A program made the translations under genes and the position numbers. The notes below the pieces were generated by a model. That model did no database searches, was not told the DNA's origin, and saw nothing but the letters and a program-made list of their open reading frames with translations. Below are positions 4,202-48,251 of a stretch of DNA of 50,109 nucleotides, piece by piece (the stretch's first letter is position 1; each line of letters begins with the position of its first letter). Where the stretch lies: the sequence record KP085586; one strand, written 5' to 3'. This stretch comes from Shigella phage pSf-2.

Positions 4202-4443
4202 ACGATCGTATCTGCTTTAAGTTCCTCTACGTCTTTCTGGATAATTGAAGGCCAATTCTCGATATGTTCATTTTTTATCTCATCGAAAGACATATCAAGA
4301 GAACTAGTGAAATCCCACAGATCACAACCAATAACATCCTGAGTCAATCCGTTTCGCTCCATAATTTCGCAGCACGTAGCTCGATAAAGTAGCCATAAAC
4401 CTTGATCAGTTAACTTAACAGGAATCATTTTCTCGTTCATCAT
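4192..4443 (-). CDS. hypothetical protein
   Basis: 83-codon ORF, ATGA overlap with upstream methyltransferase gene. Confidence 0.5.
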   Translation of the reverse strand: MMNEKMIPVKLTDQGLWLLYRATCCEIMERNGLTQDVIGCDLWDFTSSLDMSFDEIKNEHIENWPSIIQKDVEELKADTIVQH

Positions 4444-5153
4444 ACTTTCCTTACTTTTGCGCGCTTGTTTTTAACCGAAGGGCAAATGCTTGTGATTGGG
4501 ATATAGTGAGTCTGTTGAACCTCACCCTCTTTCAGTTCGCGCATAATGAAAATTACCGAACCTTTGTTATTACCATCAACGGCCTTCCCGGTTTCACCTG
4601 ATATGAACGCCAGGCGACCGGATCGGGCGTACTCGTTCCCGTCGATATCCTCCGTCAAATCCGCTTCAATCCAGATAATCTCAGCCGCGTGCTGTCGCGC
4701 CTCAGTAAACCACGCTGTAGAATTATCGGCAGGCAACAGAATATCAATCTGGTTGTTGTGCTCCATTTGCTCGATCGCCTTCTTGACGAATATATCAGGT
4801 CGACTATAAGGAGGATTTAACCACACATGCTTATTTTTACCCCACCAACGTTTTAAGCAGTTTGTTTCCTGAGAATAGAACTTCTCGCAAACTTTATTTT
4901 CTTCACTTGCCGCAGCGTCGAGATCATATTTTCCATAGCGCCCCTCAAGGTATGCAATAACCTCTCGTGGAGTTGACCATAAATCACGAACTGCGTCAGG
5001 GGTATTTGTTCCCTTGTATCGACGCCCTGAAATCTCTTTGCAGGTTGGCGTTTTTAGCGCCTGATAATAACAGCCTGATGCTATTGCTTCGCGAGTGAAT
5101 GAGCAACCAGTATCTGCAAAGTCGATGGTTTCAATATCATTGAAGTCTTTCAT
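4440..5153 (-). CDS. DNA N6-adenine methyltransferase (Dam-like)
   Basis: NPPY catalytic motif (VWLNPPYSRPDIF); size and position as phage Dam. Confidence 0.8.
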   Translation of the reverse strand: MKDFNDIETIDFADTGCSFTREAIASGCYYQALKTPTCKEISGRRYKGTNTPDAVRDLWSTPREVIAYLEGRYGKYDLDAAASEENKVCEKFYSQETNCLKRWWGKNKHVWLNPPYSRPDIFVKKAIEQMEHNNQIDILLPADNSTAWFTEARQHAAEIIWIEADLTEDIDGNEYARSGRLAFISGETGKAVDGNNKGSVIFIMRELKEGEVQQTHYIPITSICPSVKNKRAKVRKV

Positions 5154-7652: not shown

Positions 7653-7715
7653 GTCTATTAATCCTTTGAATCGTTGTAACGTTTACGCTATAATACACGG
7701 CATACAGTAAACGTT

Positions 7716-7733
7716 TTTAGCAAAAAGTGCTAT
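7716..7733 (-). promoter_or_regulatory. 18-bp dyad motif copy (tttagcaaaaagtgctat on + strand)
   Basis: Minus strand: 22 nt then tattat upstream of helicase start; abuts SD of + gene 7746. Confidence 0.65.
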
Positions 7734-7745
7734 AGGAGAATCAAG

Positions 7746-8198
7746 ATGAGTATTCAACGTATCGCAGAGTCAACTGGTGAAATCGATAAACGTCACATCA
7801 ATGGTAACAACGGAACACGACGCGGTAAAGACAAAAAGCCACGACAGCGCTGCGGCTTCTATATTCATAAAGAAGAAACACGCGCCGGATTGCGAGCGCG
7901 ACTTGATGCGCTTATCGAATATTATGGTGGCCCTGCGGCCTGCGCAAAAGCTCTAAAGGTTAGCAATCAGACGGTGCAAGGCTGGAAAGAACGCAACATG
8001 ATTTCGTGGCAAGGTGCTGAAGCTGCGCATCGTGCTTACCGACGACAGGGGTGTAAAGGATTTCGTGCCGCATGGTTGCGATTCGACCTGAAGTTTGACG
8101 GTAACGGCAAGTGCCTTGAGAAGCGATGCAAGAACAAGAAATTTATGCGCGTCGTGAAGAAGGAAGATATCGGGACGACCAATAGCATTTTTAGTTAA
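7746..8198 (+). CDS. HTH DNA-binding protein (candidate transcription regulator)
   Basis: aggaga SD; Cro/CI-like HTH segment CAKALKVSNQTVQGW; basic protein. Confidence 0.55.
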   Translation: MSIQRIAESTGEIDKRHINGNNGTRRGKDKKPRQRCGFYIHKEETRAGLRARLDALIEYYGGPAACAKALKVSNQTVQGWKERNMISWQGAEAAHRAYRRQGCKGFRAAWLRFDLKFDGNGKCLEKRCKNKKFMRVVKKEDIGTTNSIFS

Positions 8199-8199
8199 A
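8182..8199 (+). promoter_or_regulatory. degenerate copy of 18-bp dyad motif (atagcatttttagttaaa)
   Basis: Overlaps TAA stop of 7746..8198; no -10 at 22 bp. Confidence 0.3.
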
Positions 8200-8259: not shown

Positions 8260-9195
8260 GTGAACGAAGAATTTATGATGTTTCAGAAAGAGGACGTTTT
8301 GCCGTACATGAAGGGGTTATGGCGCGAGGCTTTCCAATCAATCTGCGGATTGCCGAATGATGTTTTTAATAAGAAACACCAACCTTGCCCTAACTGCGGG
8401 GGTAAGGACCGCTTTCGCTGGACTGATAACCTTAACACTCCGGGCGACGGCGGTGCGATCTGCAACTCATGCGGTAACGACTCTGGAGTCGGTTGGTTGA
8501 TGAAATTAACTGGTATGCCGTACAGCGAATGTATAAATATCCTGGGAAGATTTCTCGGCAAGGTTCCGCAGGAATACATTGTCAAGGCCAACAAAAAAGC
8601 GCGAAGAACTCCGGTAGCTGGCGTCAATGTTATGATGGCAGAACACGAGGCAGTGATGAAAGTTATGGAGCGCACAGAGAAGCGCATAAACACACCTCTA
8701 AGCATGTTTGAGTCGCTACCTACTGAATCATTCGACGTTGGCGTAAAACGTCGAGAGGATGGCGGCGAGAGTGTATTTCACGCCATACCATGTCAACTTG
8801 TACACGAGGACGGTCTTGATGAAGAGTTTTGCAATATTTTGATTATTGATGAGGAGGGTAGGGAGTCATTTTATGCAAAGAAATACACAAGTTGCTCGGT
8901 TGCCGTGACTGGTAAAACTGAAAAAGCGATCTACTTATGCCTTAATTGGATTGATGCTCAGCATATTGCATTTCACACAAAGCAAGAGGTATGGGCCTGC
9001 TTCACTCCTGAAAATCTAGAAATGGTTGCGTACAGATACAAGGGAGATCGGGAGGTAAGGGTGGCGTGCGAACCATCTGATAAAGAAACTTTATACATGG
9101 CAGACGACAGACAATTAAAAATAATCATCCCGAATCAGGGAGGATACCGCTCAGGAATGCAAGCTAAGTTATTCTCAGCAAGTGATCTACTATAA
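8260..9195 (+). CDS. primase-type zinc-ribbon protein (putative DNA primase)
   Basis: CPNCGGKDRFRW...CNSCGN Zn ribbon as in P4/T7-type primases; start may be ATG 8275 not GTG 8260. Confidence 0.5.
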   Translation: MNEEFMMFQKEDVLPYMKGLWREAFQSICGLPNDVFNKKHQPCPNCGGKDRFRWTDNLNTPGDGGAICNSCGNDSGVGWLMKLTGMPYSECINILGRFLGKVPQEYIVKANKKARRTPVAGVNVMMAEHEAVMKVMERTEKRINTPLSMFESLPTESFDVGVKRREDGGESVFHAIPCQLVHEDGLDEEFCNILIIDEEGRESFYAKKYTSCSVAVTGKTEKAIYLCLNWIDAQHIAFHTKQEVWACFTPENLEMVAYRYKGDREVRVACEPSDKETLYMADDRQLKIIIPNQGGYRSGMQAKLFSASDLL

Positions 9196-9217
9196 CCGCC
9201 TTCGGGCGGTTTTTTAT
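9196..9217 (+). terminator. Rho-independent terminator
   Basis: ccgcc-ttcg-ggcgg hairpin followed by ttttttatt. Confidence 0.65.
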
Positions 9218-9223
9218 TGCCCG

Positions 9224-9252
9224 TTGCAAGACTCATGGCGCGATGATAAAAT
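9224..9252 (+). promoter_or_regulatory. sigma70-like promoter for tail-fibre gene (TTGCAA-17-TAAAAT)
   Basis: Near-consensus hexamers with 17-bp spacer, 44 nt before ATG 9296. Confidence 0.5.
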
Positions 9253-9257
9253 CTGTG

Positions 9258-9275
9258 TTTAGCAATTCGTGCTAT
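9258..9275 (-). promoter_or_regulatory. 18-bp dyad motif copy (tttagcaattcgtgctat) in operator-like position
   Basis: Lies 6-23 nt downstream of the -10 above and 20 nt before ATG 9296. Confidence 0.65.
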
Positions 9276-9295
9276 TTACTTAAGGAGTTTATATT

Positions 9296-11080
9296 ATGGC
9301 TTTATATCGACGCGGTACTGCATCAATGGATGCAGACGGAACGGTTCGCGGAACCGATACAAAATGGAAGGATCAGCTTGCTCTGATTCGAGTAGGTGCA
9401 ACTATCGTATTCCTGGAACAACCGATAAAGCTGGCTGTAATCAGCGATATCGTGAGCGACACTGAGTTAAAGGCTATCTCTACTGATGGTCAGACTGCCG
9501 CTGACGGTAAGTATGTGATCCTGCTTAACGATTCACTGACTGTTAACGGATTAGCTCAAAACGTTGCTGAGACGCTTCGATACTATCAAAGCAAAGAGAC
9601 TGAGATTGCGGCATCTATAGATCTGATAAATCAGCTTGATATGAATAAACTTGAGCAAATAGTTGCTGATGTGAATCAGGCGAAATCTGATTCTCAAGCT
9701 GCGCAAAATCAGGCTGAATTAGCGCGTGACGCAGCCAACGCTGCACGCGATGAAACTAACTCAATCAAGAATCAGACGCAACAGATTGTTGACGGTGCTG
9801 TCGGTAGCATCAATGCGGCGAAGGATCAGGCTATAACCGATGTGCAGCAAAAAGAAAATTCATCCATCACTCACATTGACTCAGAAGAAGCGGCGGCGAT
9901 TCAGGCAATTAATGACGCAAAAGGCGATCTGTCAGGTTACGTTAATGACGCTCAGACGGCAGCACAAACGGCGACCTCTGCAAAAAACGACGCTCAGGCA
10001 GCGCGTGACGATGCGGTAAGCTCAAAAGATGCGGCTGCGGTAAGTGCTCAAGAAGCAAAAGACGCAGCTAACAGCATCAATGCTGAAAATCTTTTAACTA
10101 AGGATGGCAATCTAGCTGGTCTTGAGGATAAAAAAGAGTCAAGAAAAAATATTGGGTTAGGTGAAAATGATGCTGTTAACTTTCTTACTATTAACACCAC
10201 TGGCGCTATAGGTGCAGGAAGGAATTCATGGGACGGTTCTAGCTGGGGTAGTCAGTCCATATTGTCATCATTGATGATTATGTCACCTGATGGAATATCT
10301 ACGCCAGGTATTTACGTCAGAAAAGAACGTAGCGATAATGGTTATGCTGGGGCTTTATTATTTTATGAGGGGGCAAACTACTTCGAGACTAACAATAGAT
10401 TCAGGGCCAATCAGTTTTTATGCCAGAAAACAGCTATGGGTTATAACCAGATGTGGTCTGCTTCATGCTTCCAGGGTAATGCTTACACCGCTGATAGTGG
10501 TGCTGAAAACTATCAATCACTTATTGCTGGATCGTGTGACACCAGAGGTCAGGGATACGCTGGCGGCGTAGCATTTGGCATGATGACTACGGGTAATCCT
10601 GAATGGCCCAGGGCACAAATATCAGTAGGCGCTCAAGATAGGGATGGAGTAGGCAATATTGGTCTGCAAATGCATTTCAGGTTTATGGCTTCAGGGCAAA
10701 TATCTTACGCTGGACCGCAAGTGGCTGGAAGTTTCCAACAGGTTCCGGCATCTGACAGAAATATAAAGCACAGCATAAAGGATGATGAATCAAGCATTGC
10801 ATACAACAACATAAAATCAATGAGATTTAGGAACTTTATATTTAACGATGATGAGCAAGAAAGGGTAAGGAGAGGTGTTATAGCTCAGGAGATAGAAGAG
10901 ATCGACAATCTATATGTTAAGAGAAGGGTGTATGAGAGCCACGAGCTAAACGGGCCAAAAGTTGAAAGGCTTGAGCTTGATACAACTCCTTTATTGCTTG
11001 ACACTATGAGAGCTTTACAGGATACAATAAAGAAAGTTGAAGAGTTACAAGAAGAGATAAAAATGTTGAAGTCCAAATGA
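9296..11080 (+). CDS. tail fibre protein with C-terminal intramolecular chaperone (peptidase S74-like) domain
   Basis: Ala/Gln-rich coiled N-part; C-terminal SDRNIKHSIK...GVIAQEIEEI autoproteolytic chaperone signature. Confidence 0.8.
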   Translation: MALYRRGTASMDADGTVRGTDTKWKDQLALIRVGATIVFLEQPIKLAVISDIVSDTELKAISTDGQTAADGKYVILLNDSLTVNGLAQNVAETLRYYQSKETEIAASIDLINQLDMNKLEQIVADVNQAKSDSQAAQNQAELARDAANAARDETNSIKNQTQQIVDGAVGSINAAKDQAITDVQQKENSSITHIDSEEAAAIQAINDAKGDLSGYVNDAQTAAQTATSAKNDAQAARDDAVSSKDAAAVSAQEAKDAANSINAENLLTKDGNLAGLEDKKESRKNIGLGENDAVNFLTINTTGAIGAGRNSWDGSSWGSQSILSSLMIMSPDGISTPGIYVRKERSDNGYAGALLFYEGANYFETNNRFRANQFLCQKTAMGYNQMWSASCFQGNAYTADSGAENYQSLIAGSCDTRGQGYAGGVAFGMMTTGNPEWPRAQISVGAQDRDGVGNIGLQMHFRFMASGQISYAGPQVAGSFQQVPASDRNIKHSIKDDESSIAYNNIKSMRFRNFIFNDDEQERVRRGVIAQEIEEIDNLYVKRRVYESHELNGPKVERLELDTTPLLLDTMRALQDTIKKVEELQEEIKMLKSK

Positions 11081-13360: not shown

Positions 13361-13391
13361 TGCGTTTATCTCCTTCGTTTACGATGAATCC

Positions 13392-13419
13392 ATTATAGCC
13401 ATTAACAGCGTTTAGTCAA
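13392..13419 (-). promoter_or_regulatory. sigma70-like promoter (TTGACT-16-TATAAT) for recombination operon
   Basis: Near-consensus hexamers 31 nt upstream of ATG 13360. Confidence 0.5.
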
Positions 13420-13639
13420 TCGGATACATGTAATTGGTGTGTAATAGCGTGTCTATATCGCTCAAGTTACAACCAGCATTAACGGAATCAATGGCTTAAG
13501 TCTATTTTTATGTGATGTCTACTGTGTAATACTTGTAACCGCTTTTTCTTAGAAATACAGGGATAGCTACAAGTAGAATCCATATTGATTAAATTTTGAA
13601 CATATATGATAGAAATTTGACGAATCAATCAAATCACCA

Positions 13640-13810
13640 GTTACACGATAGACAACTGTTACACAACAATAATTATATATATAAAGCTAAAATTAAATAT
13701 TATCTATCTATATATATTATATATAGTTTTTATCATATCCCTCTGCGGTCGGGTAGGGTGGATTTTGTAACACCCGTTCCGGTTACAAAAATAGACACCT
13801 GTTACACGAA
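13640..13810. repeat. AT-rich divergent control region with direct repeats TAGACAnCTGTTACAC (x2) and inverted repeat TTTTGTAAC-N10-GTTACAAAA
   Basis: Repeats at about 13644-13660 and 13790-13806; palindrome at about 13765-13792; (TA)n tract 13700-13725. Confidence 0.45.
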
Positions 13811-13828
13811 AAAATTGTAATCGCACTA

Positions 13829-13857
13829 TTGCAATAAAAGTAAATGCGACATACAAT
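13829..13857 (+). promoter_or_regulatory. sigma70-like promoter (TTGCAA-17-TACAAT) for lipoprotein gene
   Basis: Hexamers with 17-bp spacer, 29 nt before ATG 13887. Confidence 0.45.
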
Positions 13858-13886
13858 GCAATCACACTAACGACGAGGACATACAA

Positions 13887-14119: not shown

Positions 14120-15076
14120 ATGGGGCAAGGAATATACATAAATCTAAATGACGGTCGCCCGGCAATGGAGATAACTTCAGGGCTTCGCGCCCCGTCATGG
14201 TGCGGACCTATACAGGCTGACGGGGTTGATTCATCTGGATCGGTTTTTGATTTTGGTTTGCAAATGAGTCCAGGGTCTACTGCTTTTTGCCTTCCATCTC
14301 AGGCTATCTACATAGACGATATGGATTACATCCCGGAGGTGTATTATTTGACCAGTTTTCAGAAGGTCAATGATTCAACCGGACGAATAACGGTAGGTAA
14401 TTTTAACGGGCACGGTGGAAGGAGGATGAGATTTTATGGCAACTGTTACGAAATCCTCCCCGCTCAGGCTGGAAGTCAGGGGATACTTGTTAACGATTCA
14501 ACGAACTTCGCAGCGATACCGAATAACGCCAGATTGATGAGCGCTGCATTTGTTGGGGGTATTCAGGTTAACGGTCAGGCTCAGTTGCCAGTACAGGGCG
14601 TTCCTTTCGGTATGTGGGATAATCCAAACGTAACACTTGAATCTGACGGCAATACAATATGGTGCAGGGATGCAAACTATAACGGGATTGATGACGTTGG
14701 CGCGAGCGTATACGTTCAACTCGTAATATTTAATAACACCCCACCACCTCCCGGCCCTGGAATCACTATGAGCAATCCTGCTGGTCAGATCGTTTTCTCA
14801 AGCGTTCGACGTCCTTTTGTTCTCGGCGGGACTATGGCGATAAATGACGGGTGGCAGTGGTGCGGTGGATTTTTCCCAATACTGAGAACAGGTACGATAT
14901 GCAGAGTTACAGGTGGATATAATAACATTCGATACAAGGGCGTTTGCATGAGCGGCGGTAACGTGAGAAGCACACCCGGAACAAGGGTGGGTAACTATTC
15001 AACCCAAAGCGGAGCGCAATTCCCTTTCAATATAAACATTTCAATGCCAATTCCTTTCACTCCAAACATGTATTAA
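14120..15076 (+). CDS. hypothetical protein co-transcribed with lipoprotein (Gly/Asn-rich, PPPPGPG linker)
   Basis: ATG 14120 three nt after upstream TAA; track start 14111 is GTG; followed by bidirectional terminator. Confidence 0.55.
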   Translation: MGQGIYINLNDGRPAMEITSGLRAPSWCGPIQADGVDSSGSVFDFGLQMSPGSTAFCLPSQAIYIDDMDYIPEVYYLTSFQKVNDSTGRITVGNFNGHGGRRMRFYGNCYEILPAQAGSQGILVNDSTNFAAIPNNARLMSAAFVGGIQVNGQAQLPVQGVPFGMWDNPNVTLESDGNTIWCRDANYNGIDDVGASVYVQLVIFNNTPPPPGPGITMSNPAGQIVFSSVRRPFVLGGTMAINDGWQWCGGFFPILRTGTICRVTGGYNNIRYKGVCMSGGNVRSTPGTRVGNYSTQSGAQFPFNINISMPIPFTPNMY

Positions 15077-15100
15077 AAAAGGGGCCAATCGGCCCCTTTC
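15077..15100. terminator. bidirectional Rho-independent terminator
   Basis: aggggcc-aatc-ggcccct hairpin flanked by A-run and T-run. Confidence 0.6.
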
Positions 15101-24721: not shown

Positions 24722-24742
24722 GATATTTCTCCTGATTGGTTA

Positions 24743-24760
24743 ATAGCACTTTTTGTTAAA
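24743..24760 (+). promoter_or_regulatory. 18-bp dyad motif copy (atagcactttttgttaaa), opposite orientation to flanking late genes
   Basis: 21 nt upstream of G-like start 24721 on other strand; followed by accaatcaggag leader. Confidence 0.55.
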
Positions 24761-24792
24761 AGCAAAGAGTGCAAAGTTGATACGATGATTTT

Positions 24793-28499: not shown

Positions 28500-28507
28500 C
28501 TTCAATA

Positions 28508-28525
28508 ATAGCACTTTTTGTTAAA
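28508..28525 (+). promoter_or_regulatory. 18-bp dyad motif copy (atagcactttttgttaaa) inside a minus-strand TTGACG-16-TATTAT element
   Basis: Motif occupies spacer of sigma70-like hexamers 28527-28532 and 28505-28510. Confidence 0.5.
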
Positions 28526-28544
28526 GCGTCAAAGTGTTTTTATG

Positions 28545-35197: not shown

Positions 35198-35249
35198 AAA
35201 TAAATCCTCTTTGTTTAACATTTAGTGTTATTTTACCATATTGCAGGCA

Positions 35250-37632: not shown

Positions 37633-37743
37633 TTAGCATCTCCCTAAAAATAATTTTGCCATATTGATGATAGTGTGATTGATGATTAACAGGATGATAA
37701 CCGTCAATACCGGATGTGCTGCAATAAATTCGTACAGGTTCAT
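37633..37743 (-). CDS. small hydrophobic protein (36 aa, not in ORF track)
   Basis: ATGA overlap with HAD gene stop, TAA 1 nt before kinase ATG; TM segment PVLTVIILLII. Confidence 0.3.
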   Translation of the reverse strand: MNLYEFIAAHPVLTVIILLIINHTIINMAKLFLGRC

Positions 37744-38273
37744 TCATCTACCCCGTGAGATTTTAAATGATTGTGAACGTTATCGCCATAGTCAACTACA
37801 GCGTAAGTGGTTATCCCAAGCGATCGGAATAATGGAATAATTTGCGGCGAGTCATCCCAGGCCGCCAGAATGTTCTCAATACCGATAGCGCGCACCGCCT
37901 CCTCTTTCATCACCGTATCTTTCCGGTTATCGGTGTGCGGACGCATAATCAGGTAATCATATCGCGCACCGTAGCGCTTTAACCATAACTTTGATTCGTG
38001 ACGCACCTCATCACTACGTCCGGTTAAGATAATGACGTGATAACCCGCAGCAAATAATGAGTTCATCACCTCAATAGTGCTCTGAATAGGATCGTCATGA
38101 TTTGCTGCACGGTTAAATTCAGACCAACTTTCCGTAAGGTGCAAATCATTTGTCGGTAGCAAGTGGAGGCGCTTTGAGCCATCGCTAAGCGTTCCGTCAA
38201 AGTCAAAGATTGCTACGCGGCGCGCGCCGAGAAACAGGTTGATTGTCTGGCCCCAAATTGTGATTTTATCCAT
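37740..38273 (-). CDS. HAD-superfamily phosphatase (Pnk 3'-phosphatase / 5'-nucleotidase-like)
   Basis: DxDGT motif FDFDGTL near N-terminus; HAD-like spacing of later Asp residues. Confidence 0.6.
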   Translation of the reverse strand: MDKITIWGQTINLFLGARRVAIFDFDGTLSDGSKRLHLLPTNDLHLTESWSEFNRAANHDDPIQSTIEVMNSLFAAGYHVIILTGRSDEVRHESKLWLKRYGARYDYLIMRPHTDNRKDTVMKEEAVRAIGIENILAAWDDSPQIIPLFRSLGITTYAVVDYGDNVHNHLKSHGVDE

Positions 38274-38476
38274 TATGCTTTCTCCTGTACGCGAATGATT
38301 TTGATGGTTAATTCTTCTTCAACAATTTTGTAGCCGGATGATTCAAATTTACTCTCACGAGTCTGATTGCATGAATCAATAACGACCTGGCTATTCTGAA
38401 TATCGTCAGCCATGCCGATTAGCATGCTAACGATCTGCGTTCTCGTTTCGTTGCTCATTCCGGTAATAGTTTTCAT
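38273..38476 (-). CDS. hypothetical protein (start moved to internal ATG)
   Basis: acgaggaag SD before ATG 38476; track start 38518 lies inside promoter hairpin. Confidence 0.45.
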   Translation of the reverse strand: MKTITGMSNETRTQIVSMLIGMADDIQNSQVVIDSCNQTRESKFESSGYKIVEEELTIKIIRVQEKA

Positions 38477-38532
38477 GATCGCTTCCTCGTTTGTTGGCGT
38501 AGGGGAATCATAGCGCATTCCCCTTGATAGGT

Positions 38533-38550
38533 TTTAGCAATTCGTGCTAT
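38533..38550 (-). promoter_or_regulatory. 18-bp dyad motif copy (tttagcaattcgtgctat)
   Basis: Minus strand: 22 nt then tatgat inside 8-bp inverted repeat aggggaat/attcccct. Confidence 0.7.
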
Positions 38551-40013: not shown

Positions 40014-40079
40014 AGCTGATTTCTCTGATTGGTTGCCGTGCTTCAATAAGGCCACTATATCAAATGGCCTTGCGGAAGG

Positions 40080-41309: not shown

Positions 41310-41366
41310 GTTTGTATCCTCGTTCGTTGTCGATGGGGTTACTATATCGCAACCCCGATATTGTGT

Positions 41367-44129: not shown

Positions 44130-44390
44130 CTATAGAAATATATGGCTCTCAAAAAAAGTACTGTATATATAAACACTCAGATAGAAATATGCCAACAGTA
44201 CGCTAGACAATGTAAGACAGCTATACACAACTATTACAATATAATTATCTATATATATAAATAAAAAAAACACTATATATATTATATATATACATATATC
44301 TATATGTATATTGTGAGGCGTCACAGTGTGTATTTTTGTCACAAGTGCGATTCTAGACAAATATTACAGTCGTGACAAGTTAAAGTGTAA
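44130..44390. repeat. AT-rich tract with (TA)n/ATATA runs and TAGACA / GTCACAAG repeats; candidate origin or early control region
   Basis: Long ATATATA-type tracts at 44160-44320; repeated ctagacaa, gtcacaag/gtgacaag words. Confidence 0.45.
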
Positions 44391-44393
44391 TCG

Positions 44394-44411
44394 ATAGCAC
44401 TTTTTGCTAAA
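44394..44411 (+). promoter_or_regulatory. 18-bp dyad motif copy (atagcactttttgctaaa)
   Basis: First rightward copy; no clear -10 at 22 bp. Confidence 0.5.
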
Positions 44412-46300: not shown

Positions 46301-46318
46301 ATAGCACGAATTGCTAAA
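46301..46318 (+). promoter_or_regulatory. 18-bp dyad motif copy (atagcacgaattgctaaa)
   Basis: 22 nt (with hairpin ccccga/tcgggg) then tatagt; caaccaatcaggag leader to ATG 46377. Confidence 0.7.
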
Positions 46319-46376
46319 CGCCCCGAAGGGAATCGGGGTATAGTAAACAACATCAACCAATCAGGAGAATCGCCAG

Positions 46377-47653: not shown

Positions 47654-47670
47654 TAGCACTAATTGCTAAA
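47653..47670 (+). promoter_or_regulatory. 18-bp dyad motif copy (atagcactaattgctaaa)
   Basis: -10-like gtatat/tatatt at 22-23 nt; 60 nt upstream of ATG 47731. Confidence 0.6.
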
Positions 47671-48189: not shown

Positions 48190-48251
48190 ATTGCCGTAAG
48201 GTCATTTGATAAAGTGGCCTTATTCAAGATAACCAATCAGGAGTGAACGCA

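Follow-up and report, generated by a model that had tools for sequence, protein, structure and literature searches.

A candidate marbox on the tail-fibre promoter of Shigella phage pSf-2, and the repeated promoter element of T1-like phages

A predicted operator over the start of the tail-fibre promoter

The DNA considered here (the window) is the 50,109-nucleotide (nt) stretch of Shigella phage pSf-2 in record KP085586, and the element in question is a site lying across the predicted start of the promoter for its lateral tail-fibre gene. We propose that this site (positions 9256-9275) is a near-consensus marbox that would serve as an operator for the host regulators MarA, SoxS and Rob (RamA elsewhere) on a strong, activator-independent promoter, and that the same protein would activate ~19 other promoters of the phage from forward copies of the element. 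We give this reading a probability of roughly 55%. It rests on sequence comparison, from which we infer both the binding of host MarA, SoxS or Rob in infected cells and repression there.

The tail-fibre promoter has a TTGCAA hexamer separated by 17 nt from TAAAAT (9/12 matches in the promoter scan), and a TG dinucleotide ahead of TAAAAT makes this -10 count as an extended one. It thus has the make-up of sigma-70 extended -10 promoters, i.e., a TGnTAnnnT element with a -35-like hexamer at 17 bp. Five nucleotides (CTGTG) separate TAAAAT from the 18-mer TTTAGCAATTCGTGCTAT at 9258-9275, and a further 20 nt lie between the end of the 18-mer and the tail-fibre ATG at 9296. If transcription starts at ~9259, the predicted marbox covers about -3 to +17, with its centre at about +7 to +12. 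An earlier note on this DNA had placed TTGCAA-17-TAAAAT at 9224-9252 and the motif at 9258-9275, 20 nt before the ATG, and had described a near-consensus sigma-70 promoter with a site over the expected start. On rereading the sequence these coordinates are all exact; the promoter is as described and also carries the extended -10, which the note missed; and the site falls inside the open-complex footprint of RNA polymerase at the predicted start.

Marboxes activate from two arrangements. In class I a reversed marbox lies upstream of a normal -35, and in class II a forward marbox lies over the -35 position, usually without a recognisable -35 (PMC12052159). Class I marboxes have been placed 53-73 bp from the start (PMC10268841) or at -56 to -85 (PMC12052159). 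The tail-fibre copy belongs to neither class. It is reversed and lies downstream of the -10, and the hexamer 20 nt to its left, where a class II -10 would stand, is CATGAG. Its orientation fits class I, but its spacing does not, since a start 53-85 bp past the centre (~9266) would fall at ~9319-9351, inside the open reading frame (ORF) that begins at 9296. The Grainger laboratory regards marboxes centred between -35 and +25 as possibly repressing (PMC12052159). The tail-fibre copy lies in this range (about +7.5 from the predicted start), on a promoter whose -35 and extended -10 elements should make it active without a regulator.

Other readings of the same letters were considered and rejected. 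A leftward promoter driven from the copy at 9258 would have CATGAG at the canonical 20 nt, and a TATAGT farther on, which overlaps the primase stop codon, is not conserved. A sigma-54-like reading (TGGCAC-N5-TTGC) is 2 nt short in its spacing and has AG in place of GG. The TTGCTA within the motif, taken as a -35, would have a spacer of 22 nt to its -10.

Identity of the repeated element

The element recurs throughout the window. Its core, TAGCA-N5-TGCTA, has 21 matches with at most one mismatch (1.6 expected), the 18-mer has 15 with at most three mismatches (0.07 expected), and the pattern ATAGCACnnnTTGyTAAA has 16 perfect copies. Nearly unchanged, the same 18-mer is present in 17-23 copies in each of T1, TLS, Rogue1, PsgS01F and Klebsiella phage KpCol1. 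The re-annotation of TLS by Kropinski and co-workers in 2024 lists 21 copies of a 21-nt direct repeat, aaATAGCACnnnTTGnTAAAA, in that genome, reports similar repeats in T1, Rtp and Rogue1, and suggests that they are stoperators, enhancer sites or UP-like elements (PMC11447400). Sequence agreement identifies the pSf-2 repeat as this published direct repeat of T1-like phages.

MarA, SoxS and Rob, monomeric proteins of the AraC family, recognise the marbox, which is an asymmetric site of 20 bp (PMC12052159, PMC5684230); in Klebsiella and Salmonella it is also bound by RamA. Its consensus according to Sharma et al. (2017) is 5'-gcactaattgctaaa-3', and their MarA chromatin immunoprecipitation sequencing (ChIP-seq) sites include gcactaattgctaaa (yneO), gcattaattgctaaa (grxA/ybjC), ccacgttttgctaaa (marRAB) and gcattttttgctaaa (ypeC) (PMC5684230). 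In this consensus a 7-bp spacer rich in A/T separates a GCAC element from a TAAA element. The 15-bp core of the tail-fibre site, GCACGAATTGCTAAA, agrees with it at 14 of 15 positions, and the copy at 47656-47670 agrees at all 15. With a weight matrix made solely from the 27 E. coli MarA ChIP-seq sites of Sharma et al., the tail-fibre copy scores 19.2 bits and the phage copies 17-19.9 bits, compared with a median of 14.0 and a top score of 19.9 for the E. coli sites themselves. Scores of at least 16 bits are reached 22 times in the window (0.18 expected on a uniform background), 15-19 times per genome in five other Drexlerviridae genomes, and by nine of the 27 E. coli sites from which the matrix was made.

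The asymmetry of the element points the same way. The 20-bp marbox consensus of Martin et al. (1999) reportedly reads AYnGCACnnWnnRYYAAAYn, and the tail-fibre 20-mer, ATAGCACGAATTGCTAAACA, agrees with it at every specified position but the last Y. Both the C at position 7 of the 18-mer and the TAAA tail are invariant across the family, as fits an asymmetric site. The motif had previously been described as a dyad; this description does not hold, as the motif is an asymmetric marbox whose orientation is systematic, forward at the promoters predicted to be activated and reversed at every operator-like position. The repeat and the marbox were each already known. The connection between them is new in the literature searched, which contained no paper tying the marbox to the T1-like repeat or to Drexlerviridae promoters (the 2004 Virology paper on the T1 genome lay outside it).

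Forward copies and class II geometry

Most copies of ATAGCACnnnTTGyTAAA are followed, at a set distance, by TATAGT, TATAAT or TATTAT, and then by a conserved leader and a codirectional gene. Some 19 copies lack a -35 and are followed at a constant distance by a -10-like hexamer, and among 26 strong marboxes the -10 begins exactly 20 nt past the final AAA, in the forward direction, in 17. The 15-bp core of the forward copies accordingly spans about -47 to -33. A class II marbox promoter of E. coli has the same spacing: the micF promoter, which we retrieved by BLAST of the micF RNA sequence, consists of GCACTGAATGTCAAA, 20 nt, TAGAAT and 7 nt to the micF 5' end, and a structure of RamA with polymerase puts the activator at about -41 on micF. 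(A contig scan for the micF marbox gave chance matches only, in unrelated metagenome bins.) The ~19 forward phage promoters thus appear to have class II marbox architecture, and with this micF-like 20-nt geometry they would be activated by the same protein. The earlier note had assigned the copies elsewhere to a -42 arrangement; an activator-type position is indeed found at ~19 promoters, with its centre at about -40 rather than -42.

The DNA that follows the forward copies has features of its own. The 36 nt past the marbox fold far better than shuffled sequences in 16 of 19 forward-marbox promoters (mean z -3.2; e.g., 46319-46354 (+), 41331-41366 (-) and 40044-40079 (-)). A GC-rich inverted repeat either fills the spacer between marbox and -10, where the other strand resembles a hairpin with a T run, or loops out the -10. 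Its arms vary among promoters with pairing retained, and the same is seen in T1, TLS, Rogue1 and KpCol1. The leaders of many genes share ATCGAAACGA or ACCAATCAGGAG just ahead of the start codon (e.g., 46345-46365, 24722-24742 (-) and 48213-48235), which may be a common translation-initiation or processing element.

Some forward copies depart from the common layout. An orphan perfect marbox at 44394-44411 has no -10 at the usual distance and adjoins a long (TA)n-rich tract (44250-44320) within the large gap that separates the divergent arms of early genes. At 8182-8199 (+), between the regulator gene pir and the primase gene, there is a weaker forward marbox, ATAGCATTTTTAGTTAAA; the hairpin that follows it is terminator-like and contains the would-be -10, an arrangement also seen in TLS (35223-35240), T1 and KpCol1.

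Conservation of the tail-fibre arrangement

We compared the tail-fibre upstream region in 13 Tunavirus sequences. TTGCAAG, the extended -10 TGATAAAAT, TGATAAAATC and TTAGCAATTnGTGCTATTTAC are invariant in all 13, and the marbox site is invariant except for its central base. The variable columns include nine of the 12 in the spacer after TTGCAAG and four of the five between the -10 and the site. To look beyond Tunavirus we gathered 80 loci via alignment of tail-fibre N-termini, which gave 60 distinct 65-nt upstream regions; at a cut-off of 13 bits, 24 of the 60 contain a reversed marbox and none a forward one. A reversed marbox stands between the -10 and the Shine-Dalgarno sequence in about ten lineages with flanks that can no longer be aligned. 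TGnTAnAAT elements also occur at the equivalent place in other lineages. The site begins 4-5 nt past the -10 in Tunavirus, L045, L047, L054/L074, L087, L090 and PsgS01F, 10 nt past it in the L052 group and L073, and 13 nt past it in L034 (L numbers denote lineages in our set). By these comparisons, purifying selection acts on where the site stands at the tail-fibre promoter, and the same placement is found again in diverged lineages.

Other reversed copies

The near-consensus promoters that we identified in the window are those of the tail-fibre, pir, capsid and recE genes, and all but recE have a reversed marbox. The recE promoter, TTGACT-16-TATAAT, is without one. In the promoter of the major capsid gene the marbox fills the spacer and provides the first 3 nt of the -10. 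The T1 annotation marks the identical 28 nt (15062-15089) as a promoter, and the design is kept in TLS and KpCol1, so that parallel reversed copies stand within the capsid promoter in three subfamilies. The TLS paper describes its repeats as running along the direction of transcription (PMC11447400). Its DR7, on the negative strand, is nevertheless reversed inside the capsid promoter, which goes unremarked there. A terminator hairpin follows directly past the predicted capsid start; with the hairpin in this place, transcripts that start there may begin inside it and so escape termination.

Two divergent promoters share the marbox ahead of pir: it is forward with respect to the leftward helicase promoter, whose -10 (TATTAT) is read on the minus strand at 7690-7695, and reversed with respect to the rightward pir promoter. 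The latter consists of TTGAAT (7666-7671), 17 nt and TATAAT (7689-7694), which puts the marbox at about +15 to +32; it ends 12 nt ahead of the pir ATG (7746). Because the two -10 hexamers overlap, polymerase can occupy just one promoter at once, and a bound marbox would favour the leftward helicase promoter, repressing pir by competition. The arrangement is kept in T1, TLS, Rogue1, PsgS01F and KpCol1, and the pir promoter has been reported to be negatively regulated (PMC6737242).

A further copy is reversed relative to the tail-assembly-chaperone gene and stands just ahead of its Shine-Dalgarno sequence. Taken in its own direction, the copy shows class II geometry, with 20 nt to TACGAT, the last three of which are TGA, giving TGATACGAT; the T1 equivalent is TGATAAGAT. 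This direction is antisense to the late operon, toward the end of the major-tail-protein gene. A -10-like element, TGTAAAAT, is present on the gene strand ~30 nt upstream of the reversed marbox.

Candidate readers of the site and alternative explanations

A Pfam search (E up to 0.05) of 51 small or early pSf-2 ORFs matched no AraC-type helix-turn-helix (HTH) domain, and the curated T1 annotation lists no AraC-type protein. One alternative is a phage-encoded reader, chiefly the Cro/C2-like Pir, whose gene (7746-8198) lies nearby, or possibly another early protein, which would activate from about -40 and repress the tail-fibre, capsid and pir promoters, with the likeness to the marbox due to mimicry or coincidence. 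We consider this the strongest alternative, though unlikely. Pir, with a single Cro/C2-like HTH, is present in all five genomes compared, where a copy of the motif always lies beside pir. In published T1 reporters, Pir activates the dam promoter and represses its own (PMC6737242); the former has a forward motif and the latter a motif downstream, as a Pir site would predict. However, Pir also activates the hol promoter and represses recE (PMC6737242), and the motif is absent from the 150 bp cloned in both cases, whereas Pir leaves the orf65 promoter unaffected despite the perfect forward copy there. Altogether two of three motif-bearing and two of two motif-free T1 reporters respond.

The protein itself also weighs against Pir, though not decisively. 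Its predicted recognition helix differs among orthologues (VSNQTVQGW, VNLKTVWGW, VTRQAVEEW and VSIQVVQQW), including at the base-contacting positions (N/L/R/P/I, Q/K and G/E/Q), while these genomes all have the motif in invariant form. Moreover, a dimer with a single HTH would leave the C at position 7, the TAAA tail and the strict orientation unexplained. Another phage protein, T1 Orf65, a reported transcription regulator, activates its own promoter and represses pir in the published work, effects which fit a general binder of the motif, but no homologue was detected in pSf-2 or Rogue1, and we rejected it in this role. The gene after the equivalent marbox promoter (38533-38550) differs between the two phages (37743-38518 (-) in pSf-2 vs 4418-4864 in T1). 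The Orf10 and Orf7 families were also considered as binders; their alignments revealed no reading head that is clearly invariant, and comparison of their profiles with solved structures gave no match.

The combination of a variable Pir recognition helix with an invariant motif makes host MarA, SoxS or Rob likelier than a phage regulator, and a host reader would account for a site that has stayed constant although phage proteins have diverged to ~50% identity. A host factor is probably the simpler reading. The candidate phage regulators to which the earlier note had looked would then give way to a factor that is likely host-encoded, as the Pir helix varies and the effects of Pir and Orf65 do not track the motif.

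A second alternative, which we judge quite improbable, is that the tail-fibre copy is non-regulatory, either as the remnant of an inverted module or as a short recombination sequence used in exchange of the mosaic tail-fibre gene. Viewed leftward, the site does resemble a canonical module (marbox, A run, hairpin and TATAGT) with ~41 nt inserted. Exchange would likewise suit a gene of mosaic structure in phages that have RecE- and Erf-type recombinases, and the site is dispensable in some lineages. Yet most relatives have TTAGAGT in place of the leftward TATAGT. Neither a remnant nor a recombination sequence would be expected to hold a fixed distance to the -10 (4-5, 10 or 13 nt) and a constant orientation between unalignable flanks, or to stay constant while the bases flanking it vary, and the reversed copies in the capsid promoter of three subfamilies speak against both.

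An RNA role is very improbable. If transcription starts at ~9259, the transcript would begin with a stem-loop (UAGCA-AUUCG-UGCUA) that could shield the tail-fibre mRNA from 5'-end-dependent decay, and the isolated 18-mer folds at -3.8 kcal/mol (z = -3.2). The minimum-energy fold of the 43-nt leader does not use this stem, however, and shuffled sequences fold about as well as the leader (z = -0.14). The site of the L052 group, ATTAACAAAACGTGCTAT, has an A-C mismatch that breaks the stem but leaves a normal marbox, and the arms are conserved as sequence, with no compensatory changes. Finally, we give almost no weight to Lrp as the host factor in place of MarA, SoxS or Rob: its consensus from in vitro selection (SELEX), yAGhAwATTwTdCTr as quoted in PMC5554404, fits the 15-bp core of the TTT subtype at 13 of 15 positions but the tail-fibre copy at 11 of 15, is contradicted at W6 by the invariant C after TAGCA, and gives no reason for the TAAA tail, the strict orientation or the fixed 20-nt distance to the -10, whereas the marbox fits all 15 positions plus the geometry.

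Proposed mechanism

Marbox proteins activate from forward sites over the -35 and repress from sites in core promoters; at pbpG, for example, the marbox lies in the promoter spacer and MarA and SoxS repress directly (PMC12052159). We propose that MarA, SoxS or Rob (in other hosts, RamA) would switch on the promoters with forward marboxes in class II fashion. At the tail-fibre promoter, the bound protein would sit on DNA that polymerase needs for the open complex, and with this DNA occupied, tail-fibre transcription would be lowered or delayed. The same block would apply at the capsid promoter, with its marbox in the spacer, and at the pir promoter. The earlier idea that one factor both activates early genes and represses or times the tail-fibre gene is partly supported, by an activator position at many promoters and an operator-like layout here.

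Several points weigh against this proposal. To our knowledge, the characterised cases of marbox repression in E. coli have the site over the -35 or in the spacer, and none has it near +8. MarA and SoxS are scarce in unstressed laboratory cultures. Rob is largely sequestered (PMC12052159). T1 grows very well all the same, so that dependence on these regulators may be partial. Structural genes must eventually be expressed, which means that repression would be partial or relieved and that a mechanism of relief is required. The tail-fibre site is absent from the TLS-like and Webervirus lineages. Pir and Orf65 do alter some motif-bearing promoters in the published reporters (PMC6737242), which makes a phage factor at or near the motif conceivable. 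The literature searched yielded no start-site or RNA-seq data for T1-like phages.

More tentatively, and as a possibility that we rate well below even odds, the forward and reversed copies may together form a transcription programme, common to the Drexlerviridae and built on a host stress-regulator site. About 20 forward marboxes would act as class II promoters for early, replication and lysis genes, and the reversed ones would serve as operators at the few promoters that need no activator (those of the major capsid, lateral tail-fibre and pir genes), with one marbox driving antisense transcription into the tail operon. Occupancy by Rob, MarA and SoxS would then set the balance between non-structural and structural expression. 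Relief might come, speculatively, from titration of the regulator on replicating phage DNA, with ~24 strong sites per genome copy. Such titration would amount to a replication-coupled early-to-late switch, and through it phage development would be coupled to the bile, oxidants or phenolics met in the gut.

Comparison with known systems

The closest chromosomal parallel to the tail-fibre site is repression of the pbpG type in E. coli, in which a single marbox overlaps the core promoter and the bound monomer, an activator elsewhere, competes with polymerase. Marbox-mediated repression in E. coli is also known at rob, purA and hdeA. The phage capsid promoter has the very layout of pbpG, with its marbox in the spacer, whereas in the tail-fibre promoter the site comes after the -10 and covers the predicted start; it is viral and of consensus strength, and its effect is predicted. 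The ~19 forward promoters resemble the class II promoters of micF, lpxC P2, lpxL P1 and rfaY P1 in having 20 nt to a good or extended -10 and no recognisable -35; they differ in that the phage sites are nearer consensus than most chromosomal ones and often have an inverted repeat between marbox and start. The pSf-2 copies are one and the same element as the published 21-nt direct repeat, although TLS has no copy at the tail-fibre gene.

Two more distant systems share parts of the design. The lac operator O1 is likewise centred just past the start (about +8 to +12), with a steric block as the expected effect, but it is a dyad with a dedicated tetrameric repressor, whereas the pSf-2 site is asymmetric and common to some 20 activating sites. 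In the middle promoters of phage T4 (MotA box with AsiA), an activator site also replaces the -35 and the -10 of host sigma-70 is kept. T4, however, encodes the activator itself and also remodels sigma-70. In pSf-2, no phage-encoded activator was detected, and the site is that of host regulators.

The marbox reading offers a hypothesis for the repeat catalogued in T1, TLS, Rtp and Rogue1, and for the way in which T1-like phages, which encode neither a polymerase nor a sigma factor, regulate transcription. If it is true, changes in rob, marA, soxS or ramA, and exposure to bile salts, dipyridyl, salicylate or paraquat, should shift the activity of phage promoters, with forward and reversed sites responding with opposite signs. 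A phage family common in the gut, which is a frequent laboratory contaminant and includes the Klebsiella Webervirus therapy candidates, would be tied to the intrinsic antibiotic-resistance regulon. The amount per virion of the lateral fibre, which determines host range, could then vary with host physiology.

Genomic setting and minor observations

The region around the tail-fibre site is 90-97% identical to Tunavirus genomes (the phage T1 group of the Drexlerviridae) and collinear with Shigella phage ISF002, placing the window in Tunavirus on sequence grounds. The features discussed are collected in Table 1. The regulator gene corresponds to T1 orf23, which was named Pir by Laganenka et al. 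(2019) (PMC6737242). Records of relatives annotate the counterpart of the tail-fibre ORF as tail fibre, and the gene is mosaic, as coverage and identity break inside it in relatives. The hairpin of the primase terminator is kept in the 13 Tunavirus sequences, and a terminator at the equivalent place precedes the tail-fibre promoter in all lineages examined.

Table 1. Positions in the pSf-2 window of the promoter elements, predicted marboxes and genes discussed in the text
Feature	Position	Strand	Basis or remark
-35 hexamer TTGCAA, tail-fibre promoter	9224..9229	+	Promoter scan
Extended -10 element TGATAAAAT, tail-fibre promoter	9244..9252	+	TG at 9244-9245, TAAAAT at 9247-9252; promoter scan
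Predicted transcription start, tail-fibre gene	9259	+	7 nt past the -10; inferred from the -10 position
Reversed marbox (predicted), tail-fibre promoter	9256..9275	-	20-mer ATAGCACGAATTGCTAAACA; 15-bp core GCACGAATTGCTAAA at 9258-9272
Shine-Dalgarno AAGGAG, tail-fibre gene	9282..9287	+	Invariant in 13 Tunavirus sequences
Lateral tail-fibre gene (594 aa)	9296..11080	+	ORF; phrog_1980, E = 1.7e-98; Peptidase_S74 chaperone domain
Canonical forward marbox promoter	46301..46344	+	ATAGCACGAATTGCTAAA, 20 nt, TATAGT; example of ~19 in the window
Major-capsid promoter TTGACG-16-TATTAT	28505..28532	-	Reversed marbox at 28508-28525
Marbox between helicase and pir promoters	7716..7733	-	Forward for leftward helicase promoter, reversed for rightward pir promoter
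Marbox reversed relative to tail-assembly-chaperone gene	24743..24786	+	Copy at 24743-24760
Regulator gene (150 aa)	7746-8198	+	99.3% identity to T1 orf23 (Pir)
Primase gene	8260-9195	+	
Intrinsic terminator after primase gene	9194..9217	+	Hairpin AACCGCCTTCGGGCGGTT at 9194-9211 and T run; terminator scan

Pseudomonas phage PsgS01F (PP134917; L020 in our set) has 19 enterobacterial-type marboxes, a Rogue1-like gene order and a G+C content of 44.4%. This is far below that of Pseudomonas syringae, which makes the stated host surprising. In the pSf-2 window, a 525-nt gap at 13361-13886, between recE and the cor-like lipoprotein gene, contains at least four iteron-like copies of GTGTAAYAGnTGTCTAT in both orientations together with a pure A/T block, and is probably a replication origin.

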